From Spirochaetaceae bacterium (GTDB lineage: Bacteria > Spirochaetota > Spirochaetia > Treponematales > Rectinemataceae): a stretch of 31,947 bases of DNA. Positions 3,288 to 30,579 of this stretch are shown here, piece by piece (the stretch's first letter is position 1; every line of letters begins with the position of its first letter). The translations under genes and the position numbers were made by a program. Below the pieces are notes generated by a model. It had not been told where the DNA came from. It did not search any database and saw only the letters and a program-made list of their open reading frames with translations. The stretch lies in the NCBI GenBank assembly GCA_016794765.1, contig JAEUJG010000409.1, forward strand, positions 1 to 31,947. The letters run 5' to 3'.

Positions 3288-3321
3288 AAAAGAATAAGCC
3301 GCCCGAAAGGGCGGCTTATTC
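3288..3321. terminator. Terminator between convergent MCP and DJ-1 genes
   Basis: 13-bp perfect stem GAATAAGCCGCCC/GGGCGGCTTATTC with a GAAA loop. The A-run at 3288-3291 gives a U-tract on the minus strand. Confidence 0.85.
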
Positions 3322-3396
3322 AATGGCGGCGGGAAACGCCGTGCGGAACGATGCGCCGGCGGCGATTCGTTCCGCTGATCTTCGCCAAGCGCCGGA

Positions 3397-26387: not shown

Positions 26388-27608
26388 ATGGACAGGCTTT
26401 TCGCGGCGGAGCGGGAATTCGGGGAGAGGCTCGGCGCCGAGGGCCGCCAAGGGATTCTCCGCGACATAGATCGCGCGAACTGGCTTAGGCTCCGGATCTT
26501 CTACGGCCTCACCATGCTCTTTGAGCTGCTTCTTGTCGCGATGGTCGACCTGCCGGCCCTCGTGGCGGGCCGTTCCGGAACCAGCATGGCCGGACGCGGC
26601 GAACCGCCATCCCTGCCCTTGGCGTACATGGCCTGCCATATGGGTATCTTCCTGGCCTGCGGACTGGGACTATTCTCTGCCTTCCGCGGCCTCGGCGCGA
26701 AGGCAAGTCCTCTTGCGTCCAAACAGAGGCTGTCCGCCGCGCCGACCCTCATGCCAAGCCTGATCGCCATGGTGATCCTCACGATCCTGGGCGTGATCGC
26801 CGCCTTGGACCAGTTGCGAAGCGGAGACATCAGCGCATTCACGATCAACATAGTCGTCGCCGCCCTCCTGATTTACATCCGGCCTCCCCTCGGCTTCCTG
26901 GTCTTTACTCCTGGATTCCTCCTCATGTTCGCCGGGGTGGCGTTGCTGCAGCGCGACGCCGACTTGCGTCTGGCCCATCTCGTCAACGGGGGCATCTTCT
27001 ACAGCGCCGTCCTTCTCCTCTCCGCCTATCTCTATAACAACCACTACAGCCAGCTGGCAAAATCCATCCTGATCGAGGATGCCGCGGCCAAGATCCAGGA
27101 CCTGTCGCTTCATGACGAGCTGACGGGCCTTTCCAACCGCCGGGCTTTTATCGCCATCGTCGAGCGGGAGCTCGCGCGGATGAAGAGGGAAGGCCGCCGC
27201 GCCTATCTGGCCGTCGCCGACATCGACCACTTCAAGACGCTGAACGACCGCTGCGGGCACCCGGCCGGGGACGCCATGTTGCGTCTGGTCGCCGAGACCC
27301 TCGCCGATTCCACGCGGGCGGTCGACGCTGTCGCGCGCTGGGGCGGAGAGGAGTTCATTTTCTTCATCGCGGTCGGCGATGCGGAGATGGCGAGGGAGGT
27401 GCTGGAACGGGCCCGCCGGACCCAGGACGAGGCGAGGCTCCGGCACGAAGGCCAAACGCTCTCGTGCACGCTCAGCTTCGGCTTCGCCGAGCTCAAGGCC
27501 GAAGAGGGCGAGGATGCGTTCTCCAAGGCCTATCGCCGGGCGGATGCGGCGCTCTACGCCGCGAAGGAAGCCGGGCGGAACCGCGTGGTCGGGGCGAGCG
27601 CCGAATAA
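26388..27608 (+). CDS. Membrane-anchored diguanylate cyclase (GGDEF)
   Basis: Several TM segments, then HDELTGLSNRR, DIDHFKTLND, GHPAGD, the I-site RAVD and the active site RWGGEEF. Confidence 0.93.
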   Translation: MDRLFAAEREFGERLGAEGRQGILRDIDRANWLRLRIFYGLTMLFELLLVAMVDLPALVAGRSGTSMAGRGEPPSLPLAYMACHMGIFLACGLGLFSAFRGLGAKASPLASKQRLSAAPTLMPSLIAMVILTILGVIAALDQLRSGDISAFTINIVVAALLIYIRPPLGFLVFTPGFLLMFAGVALLQRDADLRLAHLVNGGIFYSAVLLLSAYLYNNHYSQLAKSILIEDAAAKIQDLSLHDELTGLSNRRAFIAIVERELARMKREGRRAYLAVADIDHFKTLNDRCGHPAGDAMLRLVAETLADSTRAVDAVARWGGEEFIFFIAVGDAEMAREVLERARRTQDEARLRHEGQTLSCTLSFGFAELKAEEGEDAFSKAYRRADAALYAAKEAGRNRVVGASAE

Positions 27609-27693
27609 AAGCCGGGTGTTCCGCTCCGGGCCCGGGAACGCGGAACGGGCCGAGGCTGCGGTCTCCTTCCAGTCCCGGCGCGGCGGGAAGACC

Positions 27694-28092
27694 TCAGAGC
27701 TCGCCGAGGGAAAGGTCGCCGTGGATCTTGTAAAGCCGGCCTTCGCGGTCGACCTCCAGCCGGCGCTCGGGGAAGTGTTCGGGGAGGAAACGGCGGAGGA
27801 GCTCGAGGACCTCGAGTTCGATCGCCTCGCGGGCGGCGGGCGGGATCTCCTCGCCGGCGGCCAGGTCGATCTCGACGAGGTAGCCTCGGCCGAGCCTCGA
27901 GCCGAAGCCGGGGTCGAAGAAGACGCCGAGGTTGAAGAGGCCGTCCGCCTCGGGATTGGCCGTCTCGCCGAGGGCGGGTCGGTTCCGCCGGAGCTTCCAG
28001 GCGCCGCCGTGGCGTTCCTCGAGGATCGTGTCGATCCGGTCGAACATCTCCTTCATCCGCGCGTCCCATTCGATCGTCTTTGGGTGGTACAC
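27694..28092 (-). CDS. Hypothetical protein (132 aa), divergent from asnS
   Basis: GGGGAGAAG RBS before GTG 28092. Reads MYHPKTIEWDARMKEMFDRID...GETANPEADGLFNLG. The ORF-track extension to 28344 runs across the opposite-strand leader and is probably spurious. Confidence 0.75.
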   Translation of the reverse strand: MYHPKTIEWDARMKEMFDRIDTILEERHGGAWKLRRNRPALGETANPEADGLFNLGVFFDPGFGSRLGRGYLVEIDLAAGEEIPPAAREAIELEVLELLRRFLPEHFPERRLEVDREGRLYKIHGDLSLGEL

Positions 28093-28122
28093 CGTCGCTT
28101 CTCCCCGGACAACTATAGCGCA

Positions 28123-28151
28123 TTGACCCGGGAGCCGGAGGGCGCTATCAT
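28123..28151 (+). promoter_or_regulatory. sigma70 promoter of the asnS leader
   Basis: TTGACC-17 nt-TATCAT; ATG 28158 lies 6 nt downstream, at the expected +1. Confidence 0.8.
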
Positions 28152-28157
28152 GAGGAC

Positions 28158-28241
28158 ATGCGCATGATCCATCTCGGCGCCGACAACAAGGGCCTCGACA
28201 ACAACGCCCCCGCCAATGGGGGGCGCCGGGTCGTCGCATAG
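28158..28241 (+). CDS. Asn/Asp-rich leader peptide 1 (27 aa: MRMIHLGADNKGLDNNAPANGGRRVVA)
   Basis: Translated by hand. 4 Asn and 2 Asp codons in codons 9-20. It overlaps the 5' strand of the antiterminator of attenuator 1. Confidence 0.75.
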   Translation: MRMIHLGADNKGLDNNAPANGGRRVVA

Positions 28242-28267
28242 CGCGGGAAAACCGCGTGAAGGAAGAC

Positions 28268-28295
28268 CGGCGCCTCGAGGGGCGCCGTTTTTTTT
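28268..28295 (+). terminator. Attenuator 1 terminator
   Basis: CGGCGCC/GGCGCCG 7-bp stem, 6-nt loop, T8. Its 5' arm (28267-28274) can instead pair with GGCGCCGG at 28222-28229. Confidence 0.88.
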
Positions 28296-28342
28296 CGCTC
28301 CGGGATCGCCGCGCGCGCCGCGGGCCCGGGAAAGGAAGTTCC

Positions 28343-28426
28343 ATGATCCACGCCCGAAGGCCGTATCACCCCTTGTCCTTGTTCGCCGTCAACAATACCA
28401 ACTCCAACAATCCCCGTCCGGCCTAG
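28343..28426 (+). CDS. Asn-rich leader peptide 2 (27 aa: MIHARRPYHPLSLFAVNNTNSNNPRPA)
   Basis: GAAAGGAAG RBS; 5 Asn among codons 17-23. The stop lies inside the 5' strand of antiterminator 2. Confidence 0.85.
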   Translation: MIHARRPYHPLSLFAVNNTNSNNPRPA

Positions 28427-28453
28427 CGTCTTCGAACCGTGATCGAAGCGTCG

Positions 28454-28482
28454 GGCCGGCCATTGCGCCGGCCTTTTTCTTT
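28454..28482 (+). terminator. Attenuator 2 terminator
   Basis: GGCCGGC/GCCGGCC 7-bp stem, 6-nt loop, TTTTTCTTT. Its 5' arm can instead pair with CCGGCCT at 28418-28424. Confidence 0.88.
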
Positions 28483-28530
28483 GCCCGCGCGGCCCCGTCG
28501 GGACCGCCGGAGCGACCCCAGGAGCGAACG

Positions 28531-29814
28531 ATGATCATCCATACGACACGATTGAAAGAGCGGGTCGGCGGCGAGGCGAGCCTCCGCGGTTGGCTCGTCT
28601 CCAAGCAAGCGAGGGGGCAGGTCGCCTTCCTGACCTTGCGCGACGGCGAGGGCACCGCCCAGCTCGTCTGCGAGCGCGCCGCCCTCGGCGACGAGGCCTT
28701 CGAGGCGCTCAAGGCCCTGCCGCTCGAGGCGCCGATCCTCGCGACTGGCCTCGTCCGCCTGCCCGAGGGCCGAGATCGACCGGAGCTCGCGCTCCGCGAA
28801 CTCGAGGCCGGGCCCTCGGCGCCCGACTGGCCGATCGGCCGCAAGGAGCACGGTCCCGATTTCCTCATGGAGCGGCGCCATCTCTGGATCCGCGCGCCCC
28901 GGCAGGCGGCCATCCTCCGGATCCGGAGCAGCCTCGAGTTCGCCTGCGTCGAGTTCCTCCACCGCGAGGGCTTCCACCGCTTCGACGCGCCCCTCGTCAC
29001 GCCGACCGCCTGCGAGGGCACGACGGAGCTCTTCGAGCTCGACTACTTCGGCAAGGCGGCCTACCTCTCGCAGAGCGCCCAGCTCTACGCGGAGGCGGGC
29101 ATCGCGGCCCTGGAGCGCGTGTACAGCCTGGGCCCCTGCTTCCGCGCGGAGAAGTCCGTGACGCGGCGCCACCTCACCGAGTTCTGGGGCGTGGAGCCCG
29201 AGATGGCCCATGTCGACGCGGTGGGCAACATGGCCTTCCAGGAGCGCTTCATCCGCGCCGTCCTCCGGAAGGTCGCGGAGGAGCGGGAGGGGGACCTCGC
29301 CTTCCTCGGGCGCGATCCCGAGAGCCTCGTCTTCGGTCCCGAGCCCTTTCCTGTCCTCCTCTACGACGAGGTTCTCGAGCGCCTGTCGCGCCAGGGCCGC
29401 GAGGTACCCTGGGGCGAGGATCTTTCCGTCGAGGACGAGGAGGCCCTGGCCGCGGGCTTCGCGACGCCCTTCTTCGTCTACAAGTATCCGGTGAAGTGCC
29501 GCGCCTTCTACATCGAGCCCGACCCCGCGGACCCGCGCCTGGCCCTCTCGAGCGACTGCCTGGCGCCCGGCCTCGGCGAGATCATCACGGGCGGCCAGCG
29601 GGCGAGCGACCACGACTTCCTGAAATCGCGCATCGTCGAGCACGGCCTCTCGCTCGATGACTTCGCCTGGTACCTCGACCTGCGGCGCTACGGCTCCGTG
29701 ACGCACTCGGGCTTCGGCATGGGGATCGAGCGCATGCTCCGCTTTGTCTGCGGCCTCCGCCACATCAGGGAGGCGATCCCCTTCGCGCGCACGCCCCAGC
29801 GCATCGCGCCCTGA
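28531..29814 (+). CDS. asnS: Asparagine-tRNA ligase (Bacillus/Thermus/archaeal-like subtype)
   Basis: OB-fold N-terminus (LRGW, FLTLRDG), RHLWIR, YLSQSAQLY, motif 2 FRAEKSVTRRHLTEFW and motif 3 HSGFGMGIER. AGGAG RBS before ATG 28531. Confidence 0.93.
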   Translation: MIIHTTRLKERVGGEASLRGWLVSKQARGQVAFLTLRDGEGTAQLVCERAALGDEAFEALKALPLEAPILATGLVRLPEGRDRPELALRELEAGPSAPDWPIGRKEHGPDFLMERRHLWIRAPRQAAILRIRSSLEFACVEFLHREGFHRFDAPLVTPTACEGTTELFELDYFGKAAYLSQSAQLYAEAGIAALERVYSLGPCFRAEKSVTRRHLTEFWGVEPEMAHVDAVGNMAFQERFIRAVLRKVAEEREGDLAFLGRDPESLVFGPEPFPVLLYDEVLERLSRQGREVPWGEDLSVEDEEALAAGFATPFFVYKYPVKCRAFYIEPDPADPRLALSSDCLAPGLGEIITGGQRASDHDFLKSRIVEHGLSLDDFAWYLDLRRYGSVTHSGFGMGIERMLRFVCGLRHIREAIPFARTPQRIAP

Positions 29815-29850
29815 AGCGGGGCGGCGCGGTACGGCCCAGGCGCGGGATCC

Positions 29851-30579
29851 TCAGCGCCGGGTCCTGGCCCGGATGGCCAGGACGCCGGCGCCGAGGGCCA
29901 GGACCGCGAAAGCCCAGGTCTGGAGGAGCGGCGCCGCGGCGGCGGCCAGGTCCGCGCCCCGAAAGAGAAGCCGCGCCGCTTCCACCGCGGCGGCGAAGGG
30001 GAGGACCTTACCGATCGTCGCGAAAAAGCCTCCGGCGGCCGCCGGATCGAAGTAAAGCCCCCCGAAGACGCCGACCGCCGTGACGAGGGCGGAGCCCAAG
30101 CCGGCGATCTGGTTTTCCGTGAAAATGGCGCCCAGGCAGAGGCCGAGGCCGACAAAGCCGAGGGCGGCCGGTAGGAGCGCAACCGCGGCGACCGCAGCCC
30201 CGGCCCCCAGGGGCGCTCCGAAGGCCGCGCCGACCGCGTAGCAGGTCAGGGCCTGGAGGGCCGCGACCGGGAGGAAGGGCAGGGCATAGGCCAGGGCGAA
30301 GTCCCGCGGCTCGAGGGGGGTCGCCAGGAGGCGGCCGAAGAGGCCGCCCGAGCGGTCCCGCGCGAGGAGCATCGCCGAGAACATGACGAGCATCGCGAAG
30401 CTGAAGACGGCGTAGGCGGGCGTCATGAGTTCGATGCGGAACTGTGGGGAGGGGACGTTTTTCCCGAGCGCCGCGAAAAGCGCTAGGAGGGCGCAGGGCA
30501 TCGCCGCGCCGAGCCCCGCGCTCAAGGGGTCCCTCAGGACCTCCGCGAGGTTCCGCCCCGCGAGCGACATCCACCTCAT
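29851..30579 (-). CDS. ABC-2 type exporter permease
   Basis: Six hydrophobic segments, RLLATPL and GLYFD...LPF..AVEAAR patterns. ATGA overlap with the ATPase gene. Confidence 0.88.
   Translation of the reverse strand: MRWMSLAGRNLAEVLRDPLSAGLGAAMPCALLALFAALGKNVPSPQFRIELMTPAYAVFSFAMLVMFSAMLLARDRSGGLFGRLLATPLEPRDFALAYALPFLPVAALQALTCYAVGAAFGAPLGAGAAVAAVALLPAALGFVGLGLCLGAIFTENQIAGLGSALVTAVGVFGGLYFDPAAAGGFFATIGKVLPFAAAVEAARLLFRGADLAAAAAPLLQTWAFAVLALGAGVLAIRARTRR

Follow-up and report, generated by a model that had tools for sequence, protein, structure and literature searches.

A predicted asparagine-sensing leader-peptide attenuator, second of two in series, upstream of an accessory asparagine--tRNA ligase gene in Spirochaetota

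We describe a leader element, attenuator 2, that very probably acts as a leader-peptide (ribosome-mediated) transcription attenuator sensing Asn-tRNA(Asn). It lies near one end of a 31,947-nt stretch of DNA from an uncultured Spirochaetaceae bacterium (the whole stretch is referred to below as the window), where the leader transcript of an accessory asnS gene, asnS2, is predicted to carry two attenuators one behind the other, attenuator 2 being the second. Most likely, a low level of charged tRNA-Asn would switch asnS2 on. Attenuator 2 would be an Asn-specific addition to the classical leader-peptide attenuator class, its function being deduced from sequence and comparison. What was computed directly are the elements themselves, the two folds that exclude each other, the conservation and covariation of these, the conservation of the Asn codons and the link to Asn genes.

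The asnS2 locus and its leader

The genome (G000) comprises 3.70 Mb in 651 contigs, is 90% complete and has 68.6% G+C; Asn accounts for about 1.5% of the residues in its long ORFs. The features of the leader and of the regulated gene, in positions of the window, are the following:

28123..28151, + strand, sigma-70-like promoter TTGACC-17-TATCAT (10 of 12 matches, 0.0 expected in shuffles)
28158..28241, + strand, uORF1 (attenuator 1), peptide MRMIHLGADNKGLDNNAPANGGRRVVA
28268..28295, + strand, terminator 1, a hairpin (28268-28287) and a run of 8 T
28332..28336, + strand, uORF2 Shine-Dalgarno AAGGA, 6 nt 5' of the ATG
28343..28426, + strand, uORF2, ATG 28343, 27 codons, TAG 28424-28426, peptide MIHARRPYHPLSLFAVNNTNSNNPRPA
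28391..28411, + strand, regulatory codon run AAC AAT ACC AAC TCC AAC AAT (5 Asn in 7 codons)
28418..28459, + strand, predicted antiterminator hairpin, 42 nt, outer helix 28418-28424/28453-28459, inner helix 28426-28435/28443-28451
28453..28482, + strand, terminator 2, stem 28453-28474, core GGCCGGC/GCCGGCC, loop CATTGC, T-tract TTTTTCTTT to 28482
28520..28524, + strand, asnS2 Shine-Dalgarno AGGAG, read from the sequence
28531..29814, + strand, asnS2, accessory asparagine--tRNA ligase, 427 aa, class II, start backed by orthologue N-termini

The regulated gene was assigned with family models. asnS2 scores 438.9 bits against NCBIfam NF003037 (cut-off 414) and 375.1 against TIGR00457 (cut-off 342.6), and its domains are PF00152 (class II catalytic core) and PF01336 (anticodon-binding OB). 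Because the regulated gene is an asnS, the Asn codons of the leader are the cognate signal. The housekeeping asnS is found on contig C650 (L196:41-1432:-), encodes 463 aa and scores 651.7 bits, and its leader of about 70 nt contains no uORF and no terminator. Asn-codon control would therefore appear to act on the accessory asnS only and not on the housekeeping copy. Close orthologues of asnS2 are rare: they were found in 2 of the 40 relatives searched, in 10 species of the genome collection and on 12 metagenome contigs. All of them belong to Spirochaetota where named, and the next relatives (43-50% identity) are in other phyla. As to expression, a 200-nt Logan contig from a sludge metatranscriptome matches 28804-29003, within asnS2, at every position, which is at most a hint of asnS2 transcription, DNA carry-over being possible; among the Logan contigs of public RNA runs, none lies over the asnS2 leader.

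The asnS2 frame is open upstream as far as ATG 28216 (532 codons), across terminator 1 and the entire attenuator 2, so that gene callers can annotate an over-long asnS and thereby hide the switch. The Shine-Dalgarno at 28520-28524 and the N-termini of the orthologues favour 28531 as the true start.

Two kinds of Asn-rich leader

An Asn-rich uORF is present 5' of asnS2 in 21 of 21 loci (at least 66% identity, with enough upstream DNA), and in 0 of 21 when the reverse complement of the same upstream stretches is used. In the more distant set of about 135 loci from other phyla (43-50% identity), only a few score, about as often as their reverse-complement controls do. The leaders are of two kinds, type 1 (..LNNNG..G.R..V-stop), which is attenuator 1, and type 2 (..NN.NSNN-P.PA-stop), which is attenuator 2. 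Wherever enough upstream DNA is available, an asnS2 orthologue has a type-1 leader 5' of it. Type 2 occurs in seven loci: the window, L035 (= L115), L039 (= L120), L043, L044, L117 and L119. In order, the type-2 module consists of the Asn run, four to five codons, CCGGCC-stop, an inner hairpin, G[G/A]CCGGC...GCCGG[C/T]C and a T-run. The genes behind it are orthologous asnS, and in a maximum-likelihood protein tree its carriers are spread over three subclades. Given the clear homology of the modules, this points to an old module with several losses.

Further copies were looked for in two ways. A covariance model (R1) was built from the type-2 copies, with the middle arm of L117 and L119 shifted by one base in the alignment, and on the other loci it found no type-2 copy beyond the seven known. 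A strict three-arm DNA pattern run on 401 genomes of the order returned the window, G055 (which is L039), G067 (which is L043) and one match in G052; this pattern is too strict, as it missed G001. Among the remaining matches, the one in G052 is likely due to chance, the R1 match at 3288-3392 of the window is a chance match, and a weak R1 match to the first terminator of the contig C612 leader described below (E 0.17) was set aside.

The locus L003/L036 (G024) has attenuator 1 only, and its terminator 1 is separated from asnS2 by about 200 nt. This spacer carries an open frame with neither an Asn run nor a terminator, possibly a decayed second attenuator.

One promoter-like site upstream of both attenuators

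The earlier note on this DNA had proposed that attenuator 2 is transcribed only after attenuator 1 has been passed. Within 27500-30200, the site at 28123-28151 is the only sigma-70-like one, judged by an E. coli-type consensus that may not fit the host, and it would drive both attenuators. With the same type of consensus, no promoter-like site was seen between terminator 1 and uORF2 (28288-28342), a segment of about 75% G+C, and the spacer 28296-28342 has zero TA dinucleotides. Scanning by the same criteria gave one promoter equivalent before uORF1 in each of L035, L039, L044, L117 and L119, and none between the two attenuators in L035, L044, L117 and L119; the scan of L043 gave no site anywhere. 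Type 2 lies downstream of a type-1 leader with its own terminator in 7 of 7 loci and is never found alone. The single promoter-like site before uORF1, the lack of one in 28296-28342 and the constant presence of type 1 upstream thus uphold the earlier proposal, and transcription of attenuator 2 in series behind attenuator 1 is the supported prediction.

Alternatively, attenuator 2 could have its own promoter and operate in parallel to attenuator 1, in which case the sensing would be unchanged and the wiring would differ. In favour of such a promoter, our scans use an E. coli-type consensus that may not match the promoters of this uncultured host, and the AT-richer locus L039 shows weak promoter-like matches between its attenuators. 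We nevertheless judge it unlikely given the empty, GC-rich and TA-free spacer in the window, the position of the only site before uORF1 in four other loci (and the empty scan of L043), and the absence of any type 2 lacking a type 1 upstream.

The -10 box TATCAT ends 6 nt 5' of the uORF1 ATG at 28158, and translation of uORF1 may thus be leaderless. The same layout of -10 box and ATG is seen in G001, where a second ATG is located 7 nt 3' of the -10 box.

Asn codons in uORF2

The Shine-Dalgarno sequence of uORF2 and its five Asn codons in seven at 28391-28411, first pointed out in the earlier note, were all found in place. In order to see how unusual such a frame is, all six frames of the 3.7 Mb were scanned for at least 4 Asn in 7 codons located at most 25 codons from a stop. 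Only four such clusters exist genome-wide, meaning that Asn-rich frames are extremely rare in this genome. A terminator follows 3' of two of the four, namely uORF2 and a cluster on contig C612, and both are 5' of AsnRS-family genes.

Comparison of the seven type-2 loci separates what is kept in uORF2 from what is not. A Shine-Dalgarno at 5-7 nt together with a start codon is found in 6 of the 7. The Asn run persists, with 4-8 Asn codons, through AAC/AAT wobble swaps, and the choice of wobble base tracks host G+C (AAC in the GC-rich loci, AAT in L039 and L043). The last Asn codon is always 4-5 sense codons 5' of the stop. Over its N-terminal two thirds, the peptide shows no relationship from one lineage to the next. 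Wobble-tolerant retention of Asn next to a drifting remaining peptide suggests that uORF2 is read as codons. The last four codons are also kept, being Pro-rich (P-R-P-A, R-P-P-A, S-P-P-A, H-P-P-V), and here the fact that the same nucleotides form the CCGGCC arm of the hairpin is a sufficient explanation for the conserved Pro/Ala-rich end of the peptide.

This Pro-rich end is nonetheless what a different signal would draw on. The leader might respond to the overall capacity for translation, or to decoding or termination being slow at the end of uORF2, with the Asn run being incidental, and the three-segment design described below would indeed read through upon any failure to finish uORF2. We find a signal other than Asn quite improbable. 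The Pro and Ala codons are accounted for by the arm they encode, and Pro-Pro is missing from the window, L117 and L119. The Asn run, on the other hand, is the sole coding feature retained across wobble changes, and it recurs in leader peptides with different C-termini, namely those of type 1 and those preceding the asparagine-synthetase-like gene.

Antiterminator and terminator folds

The earlier note had drawn an extended antiterminator hairpin that sequesters the 5' arm of the terminator, and RNAfold yields the identical structure. More specifically, CCGGCCU pairs with GGGCCGG and, past an A/C mismatch, GCG-(U bulge)-CUUCGA pairs with UCGAAGCGU to close a 7-nt loop. The free energy of 28418-28459 is -24.9 kcal/mol (z -4.14), and none of 200 dinucleotide-preserving shuffles (mean -13.4) was as stable. 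The hairpin starts 6 nt 5' of the TAG and its outer helix takes in the first base of the stop codon. The stem of terminator 2 (28453-28474) has 8 pairs, 7 of which are G-C. Positions 28453-28459 are common to both structures, so the sequestration holds and antiterminator and terminator cannot coexist. When translation is left out, no other fold of the window's leader is as stable as the antiterminator.

A pairing of the uORF body with the 5' arm (1:2 helix) was searched for in the seven loci, and none was better than shuffled controls (the fraction of shuffles as good ranged from 0.05 to 0.84). We therefore describe attenuator 2 with three segments, the terminating ribosome taking the part of the anti-antiterminator. 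An Rfam scan of 27800-28800 with E up to 10 returned chance-level matches only, with no leader, T-box or riboswitch family.

All seven loci have an equivalent of the hairpin, with free energies between -17 and -25 kcal/mol and z between -2.9 and -5.1; no more than 3 of 200 shuffles were as stable, and a terminator is located 3' of it in each locus. Pairs were counted after the three arms had been anchored at the stop codon and at the G[G/A]CCGG core. In six loci, the first base of the stop and the six bases preceding it all pair with the middle arm (7 of 7 positions); in L044 the outer helix contains a single A/C mismatch and is in a shifted register. In the terminator core, the middle arm pairs with the 3' arm at 6 of 6 positions in all seven loci. 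L043 reads CCGGUC / GACCGG / CCGGUC, so that one change is compensated in all three arms and hence in both alternative helices, and in L039 a C-to-U change retains a G-U pair. Since the outer helix is near-invariant (CCGGCC/GGCCGG), covariation there rests on one lineage (L043) and one wobble. Each lineage has an inner-helix sequence of its own, and a hairpin is present every time. Overall, these seven sequences from about five lineages, with thin statistics, give good qualitative support for conservation of the predicted structure.

The least credible alternative leaves the ribosome without a role: the element would be an insulator or a constitutive terminator next to a fortuitous open frame, or its hairpin would be a protein-binding site (e.g., in AsnRS autoregulation). 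GC-rich DNA does abound in open frames and hairpins, and the wider fold 28380-28485 is unexceptional compared to shuffles (z -1.15), but the hairpin itself stands out from shuffles in every locus, conservation extends to the start codon, the Shine-Dalgarno, the frame, the Asn run and the position of the stop within the arm, Asn-rich frames hardly occur elsewhere in the genome, and the loop sequences are not conserved and bear no resemblance to the tRNA-Asn anticodon loop.

Proposed switching mechanism

The preferred reading remains an Asn-responsive attenuator read by a translating ribosome, for which we infer ribosome positions, folding order and the response to Asn as follows. Counting from the first base of the A-site codon, a ribosome shields about 12-14 nt on the 3' side. 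Polymerase that has passed terminator 1 would transcribe uORF2, and a ribosome would load at AAGGA/ATG 28343. If Asn-tRNA is plentiful, the ribosome would proceed to TAG 28424, reach to about 28436-28438 and cover the whole 5' strand of the hairpin (28418-28435). With that strand covered, 28453-28460 would pair with 28467-28474, terminator 2 would form and transcription would stop at the T-tract. If Asn-tRNA is scarce, the ribosome would stall at the early Asn codons (28391-28402). With 28391, 28394 or 28400 in the A site, it would reach only to about 28403-28414 and leave 28418 onward naked, free to fold with 28443-28459 into the antiterminator, which would block terminator 2 and allow read-through into asnS2. 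No separate 1:2 helix would be required, as the terminating ribosome takes that role. The contrast between stalling and termination put forward in the earlier note agrees with this footprint arithmetic, based on textbook ribosome sizes.

Two consequences follow from this geometry. First, only the earlier Asn codons can give read-through, because a ribosome stalled at 28406 or 28409 covers part of the 5' arm. Second, as the antiterminator is the most stable fold, the untranslated default would be ON and termination would depend on tight coupling of translation to transcription, which to our knowledge has not been demonstrated in Spirochaetota. The two gates in series would be expected to multiply, giving a low basal level and a steep response; if the model is true, this arrangement on a single leader transcript would make the response ultrasensitive.

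A homologous tandem leader and the supply of asparagine

Contig C612 carries a homologous tandem Asn leader (L195:1975-2450:-) 5' of the gene for protein P0003 (L195:736-1977:-). Aligned with the asnS2 leaders, it has the promoter box, the terminator 1 region and the GAUCCCGACAAUAA stretch in common. It contains two Asn uORFs, MAMTIGRLASSNRNNRNPPSAAGPASRA and ...DPDNNNFRAASPLPAPPEGRRPR, each with a terminator. P0003 (413 aa) is an AsnRS-core protein lacking the anticodon domain; its family matches are to archaeal-type asparagine synthetase A models only, below their cut-offs, and among solved structures it is closest to 1NNH and 3P8T, the AsnRS-related asparagine synthetases of Pyrococcus. Orthologues of P0003 in G001, G003, G005, G010 and G012 are likewise preceded by Asn leaders with terminators. 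This 90% complete genome yielded neither gatB nor a bacterial asnA, nor any asnB above cut-off, and P0003 is the sole candidate asparagine synthetase that we found there.

The same kind of switch thus stands before a likely Asn-making enzyme and a spare Asn-charging enzyme, the pattern expected of an Asn-tRNA sensor. We lean towards the view that in this Spirochaetota family Asn-codon attenuators define a small asparagine-starvation regulon, with homologous tandem switches acting on an archaeal-type (AsnRS-derived) asparagine synthetase and on a second AsnRS that is induced by starvation, and with the housekeeping AsnRS left unregulated. If true, the regulon would be the first in the published literature for Asn-specific ribosome-mediated attenuation. 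The predicted co-regulation of the accessory AsnRS and the candidate synthetase suggests a way to cope with asparagine shortage in the apparent absence of asnB, bacterial asnA and GatCAB.

Comparison with known systems

Textbook cases of leader-peptide attenuation concern Trp, His, Phe, Thr, Leu and Ile/Val and come nearly all from Proteobacteria, with some predictions in Actinobacteria. Attenuator 2 would resemble trpL, hisL, thrL, leuL, pheL and ilvL in that a stall at the starved codon frees the antiterminator and a ribosome at the stop permits the terminator; as in these leaders, the regulatory codons are kept while the remaining peptide drifts. The trpL/hisL type has four segments including a 1:2 pause/anti-antiterminator helix, whereas three are supported for attenuator 2, with read-through as the predicted default when untranslated. 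None of the Rfam Trp_leader, His_leader, Thr_leader and Leu_leader models matches attenuator 2.

In Firmicutes, asnS and asnA have T-box leaders with tRNA-Asn-dependent antitermination, and T-boxes and riboswitches also occur in tandem. Attenuator 2 would share with the asnS/asnA T-box the signal (uncharged versus charged tRNA-Asn), the target genes and the choice between terminator and antiterminator as output. The predicted sensor is a translating ribosome, unlike the T-box, which binds tRNA directly, and no T-box match was obtained.

The closest parallels have an aminoacyl-tRNA synthetase as target. Classical attenuators are predicted for Streptomyces trpS2 and leuS (PMC1262725). Attenuator 2 is like these and like pheM-pheST of E. 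coli in its leader peptide with cognate codons, its choice between terminator and antiterminator and its target, and like S. avermitilis trpS2 it serves a second synthetase copy (a status that for trpS2 is indicated by the name). It is unlike pheM-pheST and trpS2/leuS in being specific for Asn, in the series of two, in that no 1:2 helix was detected, in its occurrence in Spirochaetota and in having the stop codon embedded in the antiterminator arm, and there is no sequence similarity. A full-text literature search, with subscription journals outside its scope, found no Asn leader-peptide attenuator of asnS or of an asparagine synthetase. The locus described here adds an Asn-specific predicted attenuator in Spirochaetota with comparative support, a compact three-segment design with the stop codon inside the antiterminator arm, and a series arrangement of two attenuators.

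Other features of the leader region

Upstream of the promoter, a divergent frame occupies 27694-28095 on the - strand, with a probable start at GTG 28095 behind GGAGAAG; on paper it is open to 28344, across attenuator 1. Neither this frame in its full extent (27694-28344, -) nor the frame at 27379-28167 (+) has a Pfam match.

The start ATGATC(C/A)... is common to the internal ATG of uORF1 (28164-28172), to uORF2 (28343-28351) and to asnS2 (28531-28542), the encoded peptides beginning with MIH, MIH and MIIH, respectively. It may be a trace of an origin of the leaders by duplication of the asnS2 start, or may reflect a shared initiation context.
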